From: Cyanidioschyzon merolae
Taxonomy: Eukaryota
Strand: one strand, 5' to 3'
DNA: 64,000 nt
Assembly: GCA_000091205.1 (NCBI GenBank)
Contig: AP006490.2
A program made the translations under genes and the position numbers. Each line of letters begins with the position of its first letter. Position 1 is the stretch's first letter. Under the pieces are notes generated by a model. That model saw only the letters and a list, made by a program, of their open reading frames with translations. It searched no databases and was not told the DNA's origin. Shown in pieces: positions 11,186 through 59,775 of this stretch.

Positions 11186-11545
11186 GATCCACGCCTCATT
11201 TGCCATGCTCAGCTTCTTTATAGACAGTCCCGATGCAGTCGCCAAAGCGGTGACACTTGATTATGGTTAGCTGCGCTCACATGCTCACCATACAAGCCGT
11301 CTCTCAGCGAGCGGCCTCTGTGGCGCCTGAACGCTTACTCCATCACGCGGTAGATGTCGGTTTCTGGGTCAGAAGGCCCGCCTCGATGCTCGAATCTGTT
11401 TTTCGCTGCCAATGGCTTGCCCTCCGTCACGGGCTTCTTCGTTGCGATCCACTCGGCGAGTACTCTGTCCGTTGCACGCTCGTACACACACTGTCCTACT
11501 CGATAGAGGATTTCCAGGACATGGTGCTGTCGATGATGAAATAAG
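11186..11545 (+). repeat. Y-family repeat, 5'-truncated or diverged copy (Y3)
   Basis: Shares the left-end block 'tcatttgcca..cagcttc.tta.ag...gcggtgacacttg' with 20716-20790 and 58690-58750. It also shares the internal block encoding '...YSVRCTLVHTLSYSIEDFQDMVLSMMK', compare 'DYAVRCTWGHTLIRSTEDLWNAMLSIMK' in Y1. Confidence 0.55.
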
Positions 11546-12498
11546 TATCGAGTGGAAAATCCAGACTGGAGAACAAGTAGAGAAATCCTGATGCGTGTGC
11601 GCTCCCTTCGTGCAACGCAATGGTGCACGCTGCACTAGAAGCAATTGCTTCGACGAATTGAACCAAAGTCCAAGGCCTTTTCCCATGCAAGCTGAAGAGA
11701 CGGGAGCTTCTGCTTGCGTGTCGCGTGCCAGGCACCATGTTGCTGTCGAATGCCGTTTCCTAGAAAGTTCCAGTGAGAGAGAGGGGCGTGTTGGTATTTC
11801 CCACGGAATCGATTCCTCTAGTTGATAGCTTCAGCATACTTGTGGGATGCGCTTATGGACAAGTCGTCAAGGAATTACATCAAGTTTTGTTGCTCGTCGT
11901 ACCAGCAGCACGAATCGCCGCGCCGTCGACTTGCCCCGACACAGCAACATCAAAAACTTGAAGAATATGCGATTTGAGCGTCCCATACCCAAGGAAACGA
12001 GAAACGTGGAGGCTTGTACATATTCGTTGGACCACGATATCGACTACAATATGAATACTGGTTCGAGGGCATCCCCAATTATCTTGATTTCGGTGGCGTC
12101 TTCAATGCCATCAGCAGCGCCTCTAAGCAGCCACACCGAGAACACGACCGAGACTCCCGGAACGACGTATGAATCCGTAAGCCCATGGTGCTGCACTTTG
12201 ATGTCGAGCATCTATATTTTGAACAAGATCGAAAAAGTTTGAAATGATGGAACAGAACGAACAAGACAGTACCCTAAATTTACCGTACACGGATGTGCAA
12301 CACTCCTGCACCATGCGTGTGACGCCACGCAACGCCACGCGTGGCTACGCTACCCGCGACGCGCCAGCGAGGTTGCACGTGCTGTTGCAGCGGGCGCTTG
12401 CGTTGAGCGCGTTTCCCTCTTTTTCTTCAGCCGTTACTCTGCAAGTTTCTGTTCCGTGAACGTTTCCTTTTGAATCATTGGGCACTCTTGCGTTCGCC

Positions 12499-20715: not shown

Positions 20716-21800
20716 TTTGCCACTTTCAGCTTCGTTACATAGAGCCTCGGTGCGCATTTCGCAGCGGTGACACTTGGATGTGGTCGGTTGTTCCTATGGG
20801 TCCACGGTGCCTCCTGTTTCTCCGTAGGTCGCTATGTGTCCCGTGAACGCTTGCTTCGTCGATTGGTATATGCCCTTGACGTCTACCCAGGGCTCTGGTT
20901 GATGTTAAATCCGCTTCTGCACCTGGTGCCGATGCTACGGACCCTGGCTTCTTCTGGGCCACTTGGTCGGCGATTACGCTGTCCGCTGCACATGGGGGCA
21001 CACGCTGATCCGCTCAACAGAGGATCTGTGGAACGCGATGCTGTCCATTATGAAACAGGTGCCGGAAAGAGACCCCAGCCAGGAGCTCAAGCCGCAAAGT
21101 ATCGATCCGTCTATGCATCCTCCGTGCATAGCGATTGCGCACGCTCTACTGGAGGCGGTCGCTGCGAGGACTGAATTCCGAGTCCGAGACCTTTTCTCCA
21201 TCCACACAATAGAGACGGGAGCCTCTGCGAGTATATCCGATGAGAGGAACCGCGCTGCTGGTGTCGAATGCAACAATGTCGATGACCGCAAGCAGAGTAG
21301 GATATGTCTCCAGAACGGAATCGAATATTCGACGTGAGAAGCTACGGGATATGTCTGCAGAAGCTTGTGCCGTCGTCGCCACGGGAGGACGCCAAGTTGT
21401 TTGCGCTGGAAATCTGGCGGCGCGCGTTGCCGCACTCCACGGATTGCCCTGAAACAGAACGATCGAGGCTTTGAAGAATGCGTGATTCTCGTAAACTAGA
21501 CGTAGGAGAAAGGAGTGGCGTAGAGGCTTCTGGGTGTCATCTGGATCCTGATATCTGGTATTTCACGCGACCTTGTTTGATGGCGTCGCGAAACATCTTG
21601 ATTCCGGTGACGTTACCAAATCCAGCGGCCAAGCGTGGAAGGAGCCACTCGGAAAACACGACCTAAAATCCTTAAACTACCTACGAATTCGTACATCCTT
21701 ATCGGTTCACTTGGAATATCGAGGCTGTACCAATAAAAAATTTCGGAAAAGAATCGAACTGCAAGAACAGAGTGAGCAATGTAGCGTTCCATTTCAATCT
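20716..21800 (+). repeat. Y-family repeat, full-length copy Y1 (~1085 bp). Positions 20915-21800 form the left arm of an inverted repeat.
   Basis: The left end 'tcatttgccactttcagcttcgttacatagagcc...gcagcggtgacacttgg' matches Y3 and Y5. The right end '...caatgtagcgttccatttcaatctgac' matches Y5's '...cagagtcccattttaacctgaac'. Positions 20915-21800 are the reverse complement of 23218-24085 at about 97-98% identity. The identical peptides 'MRDSRKLDVGERSG...' at 21478..21666 (plus) and 23348..23536 (minus) show this, as do 20974..21435 (minus) versus 23474..24040 (plus). Confidence 0.85.
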
Positions 21801-22283
21801 GACATAGATATATCGTCCCAGGCGCCGAGCACTACGAGAGCGATGCAATCGAAGGCTGCTCACGGGCACGCGATCCATCGTATCCCTCAGATTTCGACTC
21901 GATGCAAGGCATCTCAGCGTGAACAACAGCGCCCGTGCCTCGGGGGCGCTGTTTCCGATCGGCGTGATGCGCACCACGATTTTGGGAGCGCCGCCCCAAA
22001 AGAAGTTGCAAACGCCGCCACCAACATCGGGATTGGGGCGAGCGCCGTCGCAGGAACACCACAAATGCGCCTCTGCGCGCATTTCACCATCATCTAGATC
22101 GCCAGATTTGGATGCTTTACTAAACCGGAGATCAGAGCATAGACACCGAAGCGCAGTGGACATGATCGTAATAAATAAATCTGCATTGTCGCTTTCCGCA
22201 GAGAAAACGAACAAGCTTCTCAGCGTCACCACGCGGTCTTCATTGCGCAAACGAACGTAACGAGCCTCGTGTATAAAGTAGAA

Positions 22284-22955
22284 ATGGCGGTCTCCAGGGT
22301 GCTTATTGTGGCTTGCCTGACCTTTCTAGCAGCGTTTGCATCGCTTGCTCAGGCATATGAATACAAGCAGCAGTGCCAGGTAGAGCAGGTGTGTGCGCAA
22401 TATGTGAACCAATGCCAGCAGTATGAGAATGTATGCCTTCAGCCATATCAGAAGTGCAAGCAGTACGAGCAGATTTGCGTGCAGCAGCAGCAGCAGTGCA
22501 AGAACTATCAGACTGTGGAGAAGCCAGTGAAGGTCTGTGTCCAATACGAGAAGGAATGCATCCAGTTTGCATACAAGGAGCAGTGCAAGCAGCAGGAGCA
22601 GGTGGTTCAGCAGCAGTACTGGTATCGTCGCTGGTACAAGCAGGAAGTGCCGGTGAAGCAGGTGTGTCAGAAGCAGCAGTACTGCGTCCAGTATCAGGAG
22701 AACAAAAACAAATGTGCGCAATATGGAACACAGTACCAGAAGATTCAGGAGTGCGTGCAGTACGAGAACCAATGCGTCCAATATGGACAAGGCAAGTGTC
22801 TTCAGTATGAACAGGCTTGTCAGCAGTACGGGCAGAAGTGCGCGAACTATCAGCAAGTGTGCAAACAGTACCAAAAGGTGCTCGTCTGCAAGAAATATCA
22901 GCAGGAATACAAGAAGCAGTATCAGCAGCAGTACTACGCGCAGGGATACTACTGA
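22284..22955 (+). CDS. Secreted cysteine/glutamine/tyrosine-rich tandem-repeat protein (novel; signal peptide plus about 20 'C-x-Q-Y-x-x-x-C'-like units)
   Basis: ORF 22269..22955 has a GTG start; the first ATG at 22284 gives 'MAVSRVLIVACLTFLAAFASLAQA|YEYKQQ...', a signal-peptide-like N-terminus with an AXA cleavage context. The mature part is repeats such as 'CAQYVNQCQQYENVCLQPYQKCKQYEQICVQQQQQCKNYQ...CVQYENQCVQYGQGKCLQYEQACQQYGQKCANYQQVCKQYQ', with about 24 Cys and almost only Q, Y, K, E, V and C. No hydrophobic segment follows the signal peptide. It lies in the 1.4-kb spacer between the inverted Y arms. A TATAAA sits at 22273-22278. Confidence 0.6.
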   Translation: MAVSRVLIVACLTFLAAFASLAQAYEYKQQCQVEQVCAQYVNQCQQYENVCLQPYQKCKQYEQICVQQQQQCKNYQTVEKPVKVCVQYEKECIQFAYKEQCKQQEQVVQQQYWYRRWYKQEVPVKQVCQKQQYCVQYQENKNKCAQYGTQYQKIQECVQYENQCVQYGQGKCLQYEQACQQYGQKCANYQQVCKQYQKVLVCKKYQQEYKKQYQQQYYAQGYY

Positions 22956-23217
22956 AGGAGCTTTGCGATGGACGTGGTGGCTGGTCATCTCTATGTGAGC
23001 GGACAGAGGACAGAGTCCGCGGAGTGACGTGGGAGTGCTAATGGACAGTATATCTGATGGAAGTGTACAAGGACGTTCATTGTAGTGCCTTGAACAATTA
23101 TAAATTCTGAATTTCGTCATCATTTCAAAGCGCCCTTGTCTGAGTTGCCATCTGCTGCCCTGGCCCGTGGATTGTCGCATCGCTTTCATGGCGCGTCTGC
23201 TTCTCTGTGACGTCAGA

Positions 23218-24130
23218 TTGAAATGGAACGCTACATTGCTCACTCTGTTCTTGCAGTTCGATTCTTTTCCGAAATTTTTATTGGTACAGCCTCGATATTC
23301 CAAGTGAACCGATAAGGATGTACGAATTCGTAGGTAGTTTAAGGATTTTAGGTCGTGTTTTCCGAGTGGCTCCTTCCACGCTTGGCCGCTGGATTTGGTA
23401 ACGTCACCGGAATCAAGATGTTTCGCGACGCCATCAAACAAGGTCGCGTGAAATACCAGATATCAGGATCCAGATGACACCCAGAAGCCTCTACGCCACT
23501 CCTTTCTCCTACGTCTGGTTTACGAGAATCACGCATTCTTCAAAGCCTCGATCGTTCTGTTTCAGGGCAATCCGTGGGGTCCGGCAACGCGCGCCGCCAG
23601 ATTTCCAGCGCAAACAACTTGGCGTCCTCCCGTGGCGACGACGGCACAAGCTTCTGCAGACATATCCCGGAGCTTCTCATGTCGAATATTCGATTCCGTT
23701 CTGGAGACATATCCTACTCTGCTTGCGGTCATCGACATTGTTGCATTCGACACCAGCAGCGCGGTTCCTCTCATCGGATATACTCGCAGAGGCTCCCGTC
23801 TCTATTGTGTGGATGGAGAAAAGGCCTTGGACTCGGAATTCAGTCCTCGCAGCGACCGCCTCCAGTAGAGCGTGCGCAATCGCTATGCACGGAGGATGCA
23901 TAGACGGATCGATACTTTGCGACTTGAGCTCCTGGCTCGGGTCTCTTTCCGGCACCTGTGTCATAATGGACAGCATCGCGTTCCACAGATCCTCTGTTGA
24001 GCGGATCAGCGTGTGCTCCCATGTGCAGCGGGCAGCGTAATCGCCGACCAAGTGGCCCAGAAGAAGCCAGGGTCCATAGCATCGGCACCAGGTGCAGAAA
24101 CAAACTCGACATTCTTGCACAAAGCGCACA
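23218..24130 (-). repeat. Y-family repeat copy Y2 (inverted relative to Y1); right arm of the inverted repeat
   Basis: It is the reverse complement of 20915-21800. The inner boundary '...ctgtgacgtc|agattgaaatggaac' mirrors Y1's end 'gttccatttcaatctgac'. Homology to the first 200 bp of Y1 beyond 24085 is weak and diverged. Confidence 0.8.
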
Positions 24131-47506: not shown

Positions 47507-48749
47507 AGATACAACGACTCGTACGAGGAAGGATGTGCTCGTGGATTACTTGCGACGAAACACGGAGTTCAGCGTGCTCGCTCTCAGCCTGAACTAGCAC
47601 TCTCCGCGTGTTTCCGCGGCGCTAAAACAATGCTCCAGACTAACGACTGATCATAATCATTATCAACCAGACGGCAATCCTTCGAACCGAACAGCGACAA
47701 AGTCGTTGACGCTCCAACAGGTCCTGGGAACGGCAGCAACTGCCGAGTGCTTTGCGCGACTTTGGAAGGCGCGACGCGTTCACAGAAACCGGCGCTGTAG
47801 CGTGCACCCCTCGCTCCAAGAAGAAAGTGTCAACTGCGACGCCTGGTTTGTGCGCAACCTTTTCGAGGTTCTGCACCACGAAAGAGTGCGTCTTATGCTG
47901 TTCAGAGGAAACTAGTTGCAGCAGCAGCCGCGGCAGTCGTCGGACGACAGGGTTTACAAAAAAGACGGAACTGCGACTTGTGTGCGACGCCCGCTGCCGC
48001 TCCGGTGGTGCTCAGAAAGTCGATGCGCGAGGTTGGTTCACGACGCTGCGGGGTCTGCAGGTGCTAGGCGATCTCGTATGCCGAAGAGCACCACGTCGGA
48101 TAGTAGTGCTGTCTCCAGCTGGCTCTCGCGTGGTTACCGACACACCAAGCCACTTTTTTAACGGATATGGTGTAGGCACCAGGTGACAGCGTAAACACTC
48201 GTTCGTTTGAACAGGAACACCAGCAGCACAGCTGCGCTGTGCTGTCAGGGAACCCAAGTTCCGCTCCCGTGGTGGTGCTTATCTTCATAGGTTTCCGACA
48301 CCCGTGTCAGTTAGAAATGGACCGCTGGACTACTCGCTGTGTGCCTGGTTTTCGATCTTGCGAATCTTTACTAGATATACAAGCACGACATTCACAGTGC
48401 GGCAATAATGGTATAGGAATTCATAGCTAGTTCTTCAGGATTCTTGGTCATGGTTTCCGAATGGGTTCTTCGACGTTTTGTTGCAGGAATTGCTCACGTT
48501 ACCGAAAACACGATGATTCGCGACGCCATCCAACAAGGTCTCTGACCATGATCGATATCATGATCCAATGTAAAGGTACAAGTCACAATTCTTCTCTTTT
48601 TCTCATGTGCAGTATGCTCGAATCACGCATGCCTCAACTCGTCGATGTTTGCGATACAAGGCAACTCGTAGGCACAGCAATTTGCACCGCTCGACTGACG
48701 CACGGGAAAAGCAATCGACTTCGCCCGGTGACGATTTATTCACAAGCTC

Positions 48750-49100
48750 AGGCCGAAAGTTCACTGTAATCGCCACGTTCGATGATCGATTCGGTTCGGA
48801 ATACGAATCCTCCAGTCTTTATGGCCATCGAGCGAGCCGCATTCGAGAGCAGCAGCGTGATGCCTCTCACGGAATGTGCTCCCAGAGGCTTCCGTGTCTT
48901 CTGTTTGCATAGAAAGTGAGGCCCTGTGCTCGGACTTGCGTCATCGCAGCGAACACGTCCGGTAGAGTGCGTAGCGCCGCTTTGCATGCAGGAAGCATAG
49001 ACGGATTCAAAATTATCGACTTGTTCTCCAGCCTTGACTTTCCTTTCGGTCCGTGCCACATTATCAACAACATCGCATTCCATAAATCCATGATCAAATG
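48750..49100 (-). repeat. Y-family repeat fragment (Y4)
   Basis: The reverse complement of 48870-49100 aligns to Y1 21030-21160. Compare 'gatttatggaatgcgatgttgttgataatg...aatccgtctatgcttcctgcatgc' with 'gatctgtggaacgcgatgctgtccattatg...gatccgtctatgcatcctccgtgc'. The ORF 48748..49215 peptide 'ITLLLSNAARSMAI' matches Y5's 'VTLLLSNAVSSMAT'. Confidence 0.5.
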
Positions 49101-50389
49101 GAATTACTGGTGCTTGCTTGTGTAGAAGATCCCGAACTAGCCGAGAGGTTATGCCCCAGCGAAGATCGCCATCGTCAGGGACGGCACCAAGCGCGAAAAC
49201 GGAAAAGGGCATCATGTGAAGCCTGATCTACCTCTTGAAGGGCATGGACAGAGCGGTGAAGCAAACGATCATGCGCTGCTAGGTAGCATTCGAAAGAGAA
49301 GATGTGGTCGAAGTCTTGGAACACTTGACCGCAGTCACATGTAACCGTTGCAAAGGGCGCAACGAAGCTTTTTACAAACAAGATCGACATAGCCCAGGAT
49401 GCGCGTAGATTGCAACTGGCGCATGTACAAGACCTGCGTTGGCAACAGCCGGGACTTACGAACTCTGGACTTGCACACTGCGAGCAGCATTCTGCGACTG
49501 CTGACGACGGAGCATGAGCGAGGTGAAAACCCAGCGTATTGAAAGCTGAGCATAAGAGAGAGGAGGCGGAAAGCGTCGCGGAAGCAAGGCCTGCAAAGCT
49601 TGTGTTGATGAAACTTGGAAAATGCCCAAGCATGCGCCTGCACGCCAGTCTCAGCAGAGTGCACCATTAGCATTTCATTCTGAATCCAGCGTACGGCATC
49701 CCGCAGCGCGTTAGCGCTCGTTGCACATGGCGATGAATGACGGCCATCGCTGTTCATTGTCAAAAGACTAGATCCGCGCGCTGCGTCGCAACCAGTCGGT
49801 CCCTGGGCCGCACCTATGGTGCGACGATGCATACCCTGAGCTTTCAGTGCACACAGATAGGCTCTAGATCCCCGCACGGTATCGGTGATGGATAAGCAGC
49901 GACGCAAAACGCTCGGAATACGAAGGATGAAGCTTTGCCTGCCTCGCATTCCAAATACTTCCCATCATGTGGACGCAGTTGAGCGTTTTTTGGACAGCGA
50001 CCAACGTCACCAGGAACCCGGTATGCTGTAGAACTGAGTGTGAGCAGGGTGCATTACGTGTCAGCTACCTGCGATGTTCAGACCGCGTGAGAGCCGTCCA
50101 GAGCAGCGCACCTGCGTATCGTACGATACTCGTTGCCGATCCCAAATGCTATGCAAATGCTGTAGATATGAAGCATGCGGTTCACTTCCATAGCGACATG
50201 TCGTATGGAAAAAGATGACGTCTGCACGCTGGTTTTTCCTCATATACTGCAGTGCCCTCAAATCGTTCACCTTGCACAAAGGCGTACCGATCTGAACGCC
50301 CCAGGCGAGCAGATCGAGCTCGACGCTGCCCAGCAGCTAATGATTCCCGTTTCAGACATGGTTCGCATTCCGCTGAAGCGGGTGTGTGG

Positions 50390-55190: not shown

Positions 55191-56670
55191 GCGCATTTCG
55201 TCTTTTTTCCACACGTCCTTCTCTGTCCATGCAGGTTCTCACCTTAGTGCATCAAGAAGTGTGTTCGTTTTGAAGAAATACAATATCCAAGAGATTAGCT
55301 GGGGTGTACACTCCAGAAGGTCGAGATAGAGAGTGGCCAGCGAAGCGCTTCGGCGATAGAAAAGCACGAAGAGGTGGCAGAGCAGCAAACGGCACAGAGA
55401 GAACCTGTTCGAGGAATCTTTGCATTAGTGCGTCCAACCAGAGGCAATCAACGTACGGAGTTCGTGGACCAAGACTTCAACGCCGTCATCCATATCAAAC
55501 GATGCGTGGTGCGGATGACGAGATTCGCGGACCTGATACGATCCAACTTTATGGGCCAGCCGCTCAGGCTCAACGTGTACAAAGAGAAATTGGAATCGAT
55601 AGCAGGGGTCCGGTCTTTAACGACTGGGAGGCGTCTGCACGTCGGTATTCATTTACCCTCCATAACTGTGAAACATTTAGTGTTTCACTGACTCTACAGA
55701 AGACGGCAATGGACTTGGGCCTGTGTCCCCTTAAGGATCGATTGCATTGAAGCATGGGTCTCCGCTTTGCACCAAGGCGACATAGACTGATAGAAATATC
55801 TGGATGAGTTCCCAATCTTTGGTTTTTTCGGGTACTTATCGCATCATGGACAACATCGCGCACCGCAAATCCTCGATTCACTGGAACAGTGAGCGCTTGC
55901 GTGTGCAGCTGACAACGCACTCGCATACGGGATTGTACAGAAGAAGCGCGCCATAGCACGGTGCGACACCGGCGAAGTAGATTGCATCTATCCCTCTGGA
56001 CCCTTCAACGGCATATACCAAGCTATAAACCAAGCGTTTTCGTGCTACAGGGCGACACTGGAATTACGCAATGTGGTAGACGCATAGGAACATCTCATGA
56101 GAGTCAGGTGTCACGGTTGCGAAGCGCTCAGCGAGGCTGTGTACCTAGAACTTGAAACAGGCCTGCGAAGCGTAGGTCGCAACTCTCGCATCTGCACGGA
56201 ATGCACCAACGACTGGCAGAAGCGGTGAAATCGGGACCCGGACACTGCTATCCACAGCCTTTCGACAACGAGCAACGGAACTGGAGGGAAGGAATACCCC
56301 AATACATATAAAAACGTAGATGAAACAGTGGAAAAAGAGACCAGTTGAAGAAAAAGCTCCCAATGACTGGTATTGATGATCGTAGGAAAACCCGTAAACA
56401 CTGGAGTGTATGCCGCAGTCAGCAAAACGGACCCTTTCCAGGGTCGTCTGACATGACAGCATCTGGAGAATCCACGAATGCGCAGCTGCAGCAGAGGCAA
56501 CGGCAGCGGCAGCAGCGGATGGGCGTGCTCTTCACCAAAATCACGCAGCGGCGCGCTTTTCCGGCAGCGCGCTCGAAGCCGCGATGGTGAGAACAAGATT
56601 CACACAGGAACTGCCGCGGAACACAGGAACCAGACGAGTATTTGTTGCGTGACTTGTTCGACAGAAGCCC

Positions 56671-58689: not shown

Positions 58690-59775
58690 GCTTGCCATTT
58701 CCTTTTTCTCTGGATACAGCGTCAAAGCGCCTTTCGCAGCGGTGACACGTGACCGTGTTCAGATGTTCCCGCATATCCATTGTAGCTCCGGCTTCGGTCG
58801 CCGTCCTGTGGCGCGTCAACGCTTGCTTCATCGTTCTGCGAATGCGCTTGACGAGTACGGAACGCAACCCTGGATGACCTGTTTCGTTTCCGCGCCCGAT
58901 ACCGTGCCCGAGAATCATCGGGGTCTGCTGGGCGAGCCTATCGCCGCGTACGCTACCCGCTGCACACGCTAGTGTATGCAGTTCGATTCGATTCAGGATT
59001 TGTGGGACGTGATGTTGTTCACAATGAAATCTGTACTAGGAAGAGAACTCCGGCTGGAGCATTCGTCTGGAAATTTCGATACGTCTACGCAATCTATTCG
59101 CGCACAACGGCAACGAACTCTCCACTGAAAACAAACCCTACAATGACGAAAACCGTGGCCCCAAATCCTTCTCCTCGGCAACAACAGAAGAGGTGGGAGC
59201 CTCTGGGGACGTGTCCCCGGACAGGTGTCACGTTACTGCTGTCGAATGCAGTTTCGTCGATGGCCACAAATCAGAAGAGGATTTGTCTTCTGAACGAGGT
59301 CGATAATTATTTGATTCGAGAATTTTTGTGAACTTTCGGCATGAGCTCGTAAAAAAGACGTCAAGCATTTCTACTCGTCAATGCAGTGGCTTGAATTGCC
59401 GCACCCACCAGTTGCCTTGGAAGAGAAACATTGAAATCCTGAAAAATGCATGATTTGAGCACACTACGCCAAAGACAAGGAGAAGAGCCGAGGATTCCGC
59501 ATGTGAATAGGATGACGATGTCTGCTGTTTTATGAACAGCTATTCGAGGGCGTCACGAATCATCCTCTTTCTGCTGAAGCAACGATATCCAGCGGCAAAG
59601 CGTCTTAGGGGCCAACCCGAACGCACAACCGAGAATCCTAAAATACTCATGAATCCGTAGGCCCTTGTTCCTGCTATTCGAACATCGAGGCTGTGCATGA
59701 AAAAAAAAACTACGCAAAAGAATCGAAAGACATGAAAACAGCGATCCGTTCAGAGTCCCATTTTAACCTGAACCC
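58690..59775 (+). repeat. Y-family repeat, full-length diverged copy Y5 (~1085 bp)
   Basis: Three blocks match Y1. The left-end block is '...cctttcgcagcggtgacacgtga'. The internal blocks 58940-59060 match 20960-21060 and 59200-59330 match 21240-21330. The right-end block 59630-59775 matches 21660-21800, including 'catcgaggctgt.ca..aaaaaaa...gaaaagaatcgaa'. Confidence 0.6.

Follow-up and report, generated by a model that had tools for sequence, protein, structure and literature searches.

The cysteine-heptad gene and its product

The window analysed here is a stretch of 64,000 nt from the red alga Cyanidioschyzon merolae (contig AP006490.2), and the gene in question is an open reading frame (ORF) on its plus strand that encodes a 223-aa protein built from units headed by Cys, with a mature part of 199 aa (Table 1). 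We concluded that this ORF is almost certainly a real gene that had not been recognised before, and that its product is very likely secreted, judging from its N-terminus. The N-terminus was of the Sec type, consisting of MAVSR, a 16-residue hydrophobic core, and AQA in front of the mature start YEY, in agreement with the -3/-1 rule. Residues 1-25 formed the sole hydrophobic segment of the protein (Kyte-Doolittle 2.21), and the signal peptide was called by rule, from the -3/-1 positions and hydrophobicity. The mature protein had a calculated mass of 24.6 kDa and a pI of 8.7. Six amino acids made up 165 of its 199 residues (83%; Q 58, Y 29, K 23, C 20, V 20, and E 15), and it contained no Ser, Asp, His, or Met and no N-x-S/T sequon. 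An initial annotation had described a clean signal peptide followed by about 20 short units dominated by these six residues, which agreed with our analysis. Its estimate of about 24 Cys was too high, with 21 counted in the whole protein and 20 in the mature part.

Each of the 20 units opened with a Cys; 11 of them started with C-x-Q-Y and 15 with C-x-[QKN]-[YF]. The gap between successive mature Cys was exactly 7 in 10 of 19 cases, a number that shuffling the mature sequence 20,000 times never produced (shuffle maximum 6). The other gaps ranged from 6 to 13, with 27 across the linker. At the DNA level the periodicity was held in frame in degenerate form, with five 30-nt copies of 64-77% identity at spacings that were multiples of 3, and a weak 21-nt array was detected within the coding sequence (CDS) by Tandem Repeats Finder. 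Since the DNA copies were degenerate yet in frame, the periodic units appeared to be old and selected, and not a recent simple-sequence expansion. The GC content of about 0.495-0.50 over the gene, compared to 0.55-0.64 in neighbouring genes, matched the earlier remark that it is more AT-rich than its surroundings, and followed from its Gln, Lys, Tyr, and Cys codon content.

Table 1. Positions in the window of the gene, the parts of its product, the antisense ORF, and the flanking repeat arms.
Feature	Position	Strand	Remark
CDS of the secreted Cys-heptad protein, stop included	22284..22955	+	one exon; ATG to TGA, uninterrupted
Signal peptide, residues 1-24 (MAVSR / VLIVACLTFLAAFASL / AQA), cleavage predicted before Y25	22284..22355	+	-3/-1 rule, hydrophobicity
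N-terminal 10-Cys module C31-C101	22374..22586	+	Cys gaps 6,7,7,7,7,7,13,7,9
Linker, residues 102-127, with YWYRRWY	22587..22664	+	aromatic/basic motif kept among paralogues
C-terminal 10-Cys module C128-C202	22665..22889	+	Cys gaps 6,10,13,7,8,7,7,7,9
Tyr/Gln/Lys-rich tail KKYQQEYKKQYQQQYYAQGYY, last residues YY	22890..22952	+	read from sequence
Antisense Leu-rich ORF	22326..23189	-	287 aa from ATG; 371 aa from TTG at 23441; mirror-frame artefact
Left inverted-repeat arm	20915..21803		889 nt; copy of dispersed non-coding repeat
Right inverted-repeat arm	23212..24100		889 nt; 14 differences from left arm
Unique 1408-nt spacer between arms	21804..23211		480 nt upstream, CDS, 256 nt downstream

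The gene family and the coding strand

The window protein had a single homologue, P0001 (223 aa), among 5.8 billion clustered proteins (E 5e-41, all Cys aligned), and a profile search of 1.84 billion representatives added a few more; the E-values of homologues ranged from 5e-41 to 7e-88. A second profile search identified four named members, all deposited as hypothetical proteins, with E-values of 1e-63 to 1e-79 and 38-56% identity to the window protein. These were CMR328C of C. merolae (BAM82536.1; UniProt M1UWF1), CDCA14G3890 and CDCA14G3897 of Cyanidium caldarium, and CCYA15G3913 of Cyanidiococcus yangmingshanensis. A literature search on CMR328C-like gene identifiers found nothing, and none of these members has been characterised. 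The initial annotation had recommended a tblastn search for paralogues, which detected family members on the contigs L001, L012, and L013 (E 1e-39 to 1e-45). The family was detected in Cyanidioschyzon, Cyanidiococcus, and Cyanidium and remained undetected in Galdieria. No Pfam family, Cys-rich ones such as Somatomedin_B and the oocyst-wall repeats included, matched the window protein at E <= 1, and no PDB sequence matched it; the best Pfam match among the paralogues was PF01508 (Paramecium_SA; E 0.0011), which was of a composition type and under the gathering threshold. Together with a fold search that gave no significant match, these results upheld the earlier view that the protein belongs to no described family. 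By sequence, it is a member of an undescribed cyanidiophycean family of 20-Cys heptad proteins (CMR328C-like).

Thirteen family genes were extracted from at least five genomes. A signal peptide and an aromatic C-terminus were present in all 13, and a further hydrophobic segment in none. Exactly 20 mature Cys were found in 12 of the 13 genes, with the shorter Cyanidium gene L012_b having 14, and all 20 were invariant in alignments of 9 and 10 sequences. The G170-K171-C172 motif of the C-terminal module was likewise invariant in family alignments. The linker varied from about 25 to 100 residues among the paralogues; its residues Y112, W113, R116, and W117 were invariant or nearly so and gave the common motif (Y/W)W-x-x-RW. 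The C-terminal YY of the window protein was replaced by YW, MW, YWN, or WWG in the paralogues. Composition ranged over 8-21% Lys, 12-36% Gln, and 6-16% Tyr plus Trp. A rough neighbour-joining tree resolved four subfamilies, each present across genera. The window gene clustered with 'par2-type' genes of Cyanidiococcus-like lineages and with Cyanidium a/b/3897, and the named relatives outside the latter group belonged to subfamilies other than its own. A k-mer search for a shared upstream motif across 12 family genes found nothing convincing.

The strand opposite the gene carries a long Leu-rich ORF. This ORF was the codon-for-codon mirror of the sense frame, in which CAG, AAG, and GAG read as CTG, CTT, and CTC, and it was closed solely by a single CTA codon within the signal peptide. 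Across six family gene pairs, pN/pS was 0.22-0.36 in the sense frame versus 0.89-1.02 in the mirror frame. Third codon positions of the sense frame varied most, at 0.40-0.58 compared to 0.10-0.39 at second positions. The sense frame contained no stop in any of the 13 family genes, and the antisense frame contained 1-5 stops in the paralogues. Because of the low sense pN/pS and the antisense stops, we took the Cys/Gln/Tyr frame to be the selected product, and the initial annotation was right to regard the antisense ORF (22326..23441) as an artefact.

The 223-aa protein was absent from a collection of 15 billion sequences in which the C. merolae proteome is present as its NCBI, UniRef, and EukProt versions; its sequence was carried only by metagenome fragments and one Logan contig. 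The entry for this locus in Data Set S8 of Hirooka et al. 2026 (Plant Cell, PMC13353863) places CMH161C (BAM79828.1) between CMH159C (eIF3g) and CMH162C. It is annotated there as a 'hypothetical protein', with six transmembrane segments called by Phobius and the signal peptide given as absent. The antisense ORF had six hydrophobic segments, and the other ATG ORFs of 50 or more codons in the interval from CMH159C to CMH162C had at most one. By elimination, as the sole ORF there with several such segments, the antisense ORF is very probably the CMH161C model, and the reference model therefore probably sits on the wrong strand. None of ten ATG ORFs looked up between 19.8 and 24.6 kb had an exact match, and a homology search with the antisense ORF gave one metagenome ORF as its sole match. 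It is apparently because the 2007 gene model takes the wrong strand that the locus was not counted among secreted proteins. Genes rich in Gln, Lys, Glu, Tyr, and Cys yield long Leu-rich antisense ORFs, among which annotation pipelines may choose wrongly.

Two other readings of the locus were weighed at this level. The minus-strand ORF could be a true membrane protein with six transmembrane segments, with the Cys/Gln/Tyr frame as its mirror artefact, and this would accord with the published CMH161C entry and with read counting that was described as strand-specific, sense to the annotated CDS (PMC13353863). We consider it highly improbable: besides the near-neutral pN/pS of the mirror frame and the stops in paralogues, conserved aromatic exchanges of the sense frame (Y/W/F/H) read as V/P/E in antisense, the four named relatives were all annotated on the Cys-rich frame, and the antisense start falls in the non-conserved 3' flank. 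The plus-strand ORF could instead be a chance low-complexity frame or a pseudogene decaying in a wall-less laboratory strain, given that 10D does not express the locus and that some metagenome-derived fragments were frameshifted or one heptad short. This was the least probable reading of all. The ORF was intact in 10D and on three environmental contigs, with one change in 672 nt (G655C, Ala219Pro) compared to flanks that differed by about 0.6-1% from 10D, the family is deeply conserved, and the Cys periodicity was far above chance. The conservation and selection tests refuted it.

Several further sequences related to the family were observed. The par1-type member beside CMR328C was 354 aa long on one C. 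merolae-type contig (L015 1170-2234) and 462 aa on another (L017 5617-7005), and the two differed in the copy number of tandem Tyr-rich tail repeats (QYYWEPQKTQYYKKNDYKKNVYND). The metagenome ORFs P0007, P0009, P0011, P0012, and P0110 were fragments or chimaeras of the window gene. Exactly one heptad (QVCKQYQ) was missing from one of them, one skipped from residue 31 to 101, and others were frameshifted; they may be assembly errors over the internal repeats, or true unit-number variants or pseudogene copies. P0006 (196 aa, Joint Genome Institute) had a par2-type N-terminal 10-Cys module fused to a DPH3/Kti11-like CSL zinc-finger sequence and is probably a mis-spliced or chimeric prediction. 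P0013 (L018 343-840), which is 165 aa long and has a signal-like N-terminus and CVQYGTQ/CAQYGTQ heptads, matched the family profile at E 6e-4, and its gene directly follows a PEBP-family gene on a 1.6-kb contig. Distant relationship may explain this protein, as may convergence on a similar design outside the Cyanidiales.

Diploid-specific expression and a candidate wall protein

Strain 10D of C. merolae is a wall-less haploid, and mating gives rise to a walled diploid (PMC13353863). Cellulose synthases have been lost in Cyanidiophyceae, and the wall of 'Cyanidium' is 50-55% protein (PMC13353863). In the CMH161C entry of Data Set S8 (PMC13353863), expression was 980, 1120, and 1197 transcripts per million (TPM) in the walled MS1 diploid, compared to 1.5, 1.3, and 1.3 TPM in the wall-less MS1 Ha3 haploid and 0, 0.2, and 0.6 TPM in the wall-less 10D haploid. 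The log2 fold change was 9.9 for MS1 versus MS1 Ha3 and 12.0 for MS1 versus 10D, with a false discovery rate of 0 (PMC13353863). We are confident that the CMH161C locus is diploid-specific, being up about a thousand-fold in the walled phase, and it is among the loci with the strongest diploid specificity in the published data. The suggestion of the initial annotation to look at expression in sexual stages was thus apt.

Other secreted components share this phase. Secreted proteins with the fasciclin domain (FAS1), lysyl oxidase (LOX), and RBOH are expressed mainly in the diploid, and LOX occurs in Cyanidium, Cyanidiococcus, and Cyanidioschyzon and is absent from Galdieria (PMC13353863). The taxon distribution of the 20-Cys family was the same as that of LOX. 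The enzyme has been proposed to cross-link wall proteins, with no substrate identified (Tomo et al. 2018, PMC6508830). From its 23 mature Lys and the LOX-like distribution of its family, we tentatively put the window protein forward as a putative LOX substrate, an assignment that we hold to be possible and short of probable.

The structure of the protein was predicted with AlphaFold2. The model from a 9-sequence alignment had a mean predicted local distance difference test score (pLDDT) of 74, with 85-90 in the core, and DSSP assigned strands to residues 31-104 (pLDDT 76-89) and 125-202 (pLDDT 85-90), about 75 residues each, with a short helix of low confidence at 112-117 (YWYRRW). An all-helical model from a 2-sequence alignment (pLDDT 43) was discarded. 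When the modules were read antiparallel, their Cys gaps corresponded, with the N-module gaps of Table 1 standing against 9,7,7,7,8,7,13,10,6 in the reversed C-module, and the lone 13-residue gap occupied an identical rung in each. A flat ladder whose disulfides join the strands on alternating faces would require equal odd spacings. The two halves were alike by hhalign (probability 89-94%), which may reflect internal duplication or plain repeat similarity. On the basis of this model, we give an even chance to the two modules forming one long disulfide-laddered beta-hairpin; the Cys may alternatively pair between molecules instead of forming intramolecular rungs. A fold search with the model returned weak, non-significant matches throughout, all to long-hairpin pore formers.

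Taken together, we favour, with somewhat better than even confidence, the window protein as a candidate small, secreted, cross-linkable structural protein of the proteinaceous diploid cell wall. The initial annotation had suggested a cross-linkable extracellular or wall protein, and both the expression of the locus in the walled diploid stage and the high protein content of the wall fit this suggestion. In the mechanism that we propose, the signal peptide would direct the protein into the endoplasmic reticulum, and the 10-Cys modules would align antiparallel as the two strands of a single, very long beta-ribbon, with up to ten disulfide rungs from C31-C202 through C101-C128 as indicated by the AlphaFold2 model and the symmetric Cys spacing. 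The resulting rod, having no Ser, no sequon, and no Asp, would be exported unglycosylated and then locked covalently into the largely proteinaceous, cellulose-free wall. Locking may involve Lys through the co-expressed secreted LOX, the Tyr/Trp-rich tail through RBOH-derived oxidants, or intermolecular disulfides. Regulation would follow the published RNA-seq, subject to the strand caveat below, with the locus silent in wall-less haploids and very active in walled diploids.

Several points weigh against a structural role in the wall. If the CMH161C model is antisense, the counted RNA came from the minus strand, and expression of the sense gene is presumptive. C. merolae is without class III peroxidase (PMC13353863), which bears on the enzymology of Tyr cross-linking. 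The hairpin and disulfide rungs that we infer come from a shallow alignment of 9 sequences with a predicted template modelling score (pTM) of 0.26, and the support for the wall role lies at the level of gene, transcript, and model. The phase specificity of the locus is independent of which strand was counted. As for the counts themselves, it is possible that both strands are transcribed, with a phase-specific promoter in the inverted arms facing across the gene, and it is also possible that the strand filter behaved otherwise than described at this locus. Less likely, inversion between the arms could switch the strand that is read and so explain strand-specific counts on an antisense model.

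A secreted and diploid-specific protein need not be a bulk structural one. It could form a surface coat or proton barrier, serve adhesion or retention of the four daughter cells in the mother wall, or act as a defensive Cys-rich peptide. The same secretion and expression evidence fits such roles, diploid-biased TFF-like proteins have been discussed as acid protection and not as structure (PMC13353863), and the sole, non-significant fold matches of the model are long-hairpin pore formers; we regard this alternative as unlikely, while giving it real weight. Much less probable is a thiol-based, metallothionein-like polypeptide that detoxifies metals or metalloids of acid spring water, an option that the initial annotation had also raised. 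In favour of it, 10% of the mature residues are Cys and the alga lives in metal-rich water. Against metal binding, the protein has no CC, CxC, or CxxC motif and a smallest Cys gap of 6, the signal peptide routes it to an oxidising compartment, the invariant even count of 20 Cys is typical of disulfides, and expression tracks life-cycle phase in the same medium and not metal exposure.

Compared to known systems, the cyanidiophycean paralogues are true homologues and resemble the window protein in their signal peptide, 10+10 invariant Cys, W-x-x-R-W linker, and aromatic C-terminus; they differ in lying in an ancestral cluster beside S26 peptidase, globin, and Rft-1, and not between inverted repeats. 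The oocyst-wall proteins of apicomplexans (the Cys-rich COWP/OWP and the Tyr-rich GAM56/GAM82 of Eimeria) are secreted, stage-specific proteins with periodic Cys and Tyr-rich segments, and they form an acid-resistant wall that is mainly cross-linked protein. They come from an unrelated lineage and showed no similarity to the window protein (0 Pfam matches), and their six-Cys domains of about 50-65 residues contrast with its 7-residue Cys period. Keratin-associated proteins, SPRR, loricrin, and involucrin are small proteins of short Cys-, Gln-, Lys-, and Tyr-rich repeats whose disulfides and Gln-Lys cross-links make a barrier hard; these are cytosolic proteins of animal keratinocytes without a signal peptide or homology to the window protein. 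Metallothioneins and phytochelatin-like peptides have high Cys content and low complexity in common with it, whereas metallothioneins are cytosolic and have CxC, CC, or CxxC clusters, neither of which applies here. Aerolysin, lysenin, and anthrax-PA pore formers have very long two-stranded hairpins like the AlphaFold2 model, with fold similarity that was not significant. The animal LOX substrates elastin and collagen (cited by Hirooka 2026 and Tomo 2018) are likewise Lys-rich secreted structural proteins with co-expressed LOX; there is no homology, and the window protein is rich in Cys and Gln and not in Gly, Pro, and Ala.

C. merolae is a leading minimal model among algae, and the description of its walled diploid stage dates only from 2026. 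The diploid wall is half protein, has no cellulose, and may be proton-impermeable. The corrected gene model provides a candidate wall protein that is open to genetic tests, a gene family to seek in wall proteomes, and candidate substrates for the algal LOX. A bolder proposal, which we consider doubtful at present, is that the family supplies the chief load-bearing polymer of a proton-tight protein wall without cellulose, made of LOX-cross-linked beta-ribbon rods of about 25 nm with ten rungs. If true, the ten-rung beta-ribbon would be a fold without a solved counterpart, and an early-branching red alga would have a matrix chemistry that parallels animal elastin and collagen.

The inverted repeat and the neighbourhood of the gene

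The initial annotation placed the gene in a repeat-bounded cassette, which was confirmed. The inverted arms were 98.4% identical, with the inner 300 nt the same except for one indel, and the spacer between them carried the window gene only. Both arms, nearly identical to each other, belong to a dispersed intergenic repeat family of about 0.8-0.9 kb, whose copies were about 66% identical. Further copies were found in the window (approximately 11413-12202, 48291-49155, 55806-55982, and 58924-59771) and in related genomes (L013 8364-9109 and 18891-19282; L017 4129-4430). The repeat was judged non-coding because its copies were equally similar in all six reading frames, and ORFs within the arms had no Pfam match.

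The spacer can be found in either orientation. On two contigs from different metagenomes (L010, 1-5247; L011, 1-2859) it was reversed relative to the eIF3g flank when compared to 10D, and the arm adjoining the 3' end of the gene carried mostly right-arm variants. The diagnostic arm variants travel with the spacer, and this pattern argues for a true inversion, produced when the arms recombined, over a misassembly. The arms appeared as mosaics of each other between populations, which suggests both recombination and gene conversion between them. A scan of metagenome contigs with the window protein matched only three contigs, all of C. merolae type. Genes of the window were likewise present on contigs from hot-spring metagenomes, one of which, Ga0078972, is a Yellowstone sample (PMC8986864).

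The chromosomal setting clarified how the gene came to lie there. Paralogues were clustered, with three members in 10 kb of a Cyanidiococcus-like genome (L001), four in 10 kb of Cyanidium (L012), and two adjoining members at the C. merolae-type CMR locus (L015-L017). The clusters adjoined genes for S26 peptidase, globin, NifU, Rft-1, and glyoxalase, and because the neighbouring globin is CMR319C, the ancestral cluster was assigned to chromosome 18. The window gene lies on chromosome 8, away from this cluster; no synteny was found between its locus and the paralogue clusters, and none of the paralogue loci examined was flanked by such an inverted repeat. The recent acquisition proposed in the initial annotation does not hold, because four subfamilies are common to three genera and orthologues of the window gene occur in Cyanidiococcus-like and Cyanidium genomes. 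The mobility proposed with it was correct in so far as the gene sits off the ancestral cluster, between arms of a dispersed repeat, in a segment that is inverted in environmental contigs. The cassette signifies a relocated old family member with flip-flop inversion.

Other features of the region were as follows. A near-palindrome, TTTTGGGAGCGCCGCCCCAAAA, lies at 21980-22001, and the start codon follows about 280 nt downstream. The near-palindrome is exactly where the Logan contig L004 (window 22002-23241) starts, and its position may mark a transcript end or a mere break in the assembly graph. The downstream neighbour CMH162C (BAM79829; 24595-27393) encodes a 932-aa Tesmin/TSO1 CXC (CPP-type) transcription factor, and its entry in Data Set S8 gives no differential expression between the phases (PMC13353863). 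All six other window ORFs that were compared were exact matches to 10D proteins, namely CMH159C (eIF3g, BAM79827), CMH162C, CMH164C, CMH165C, CMH172C, and BAM79837. The window also holds nuclear gyrB, a YceD-type gene, a photolyase gene, and an intron-free PRP8 of 2398 codons, a set indicative of a eukaryote with a plastid and few introns.

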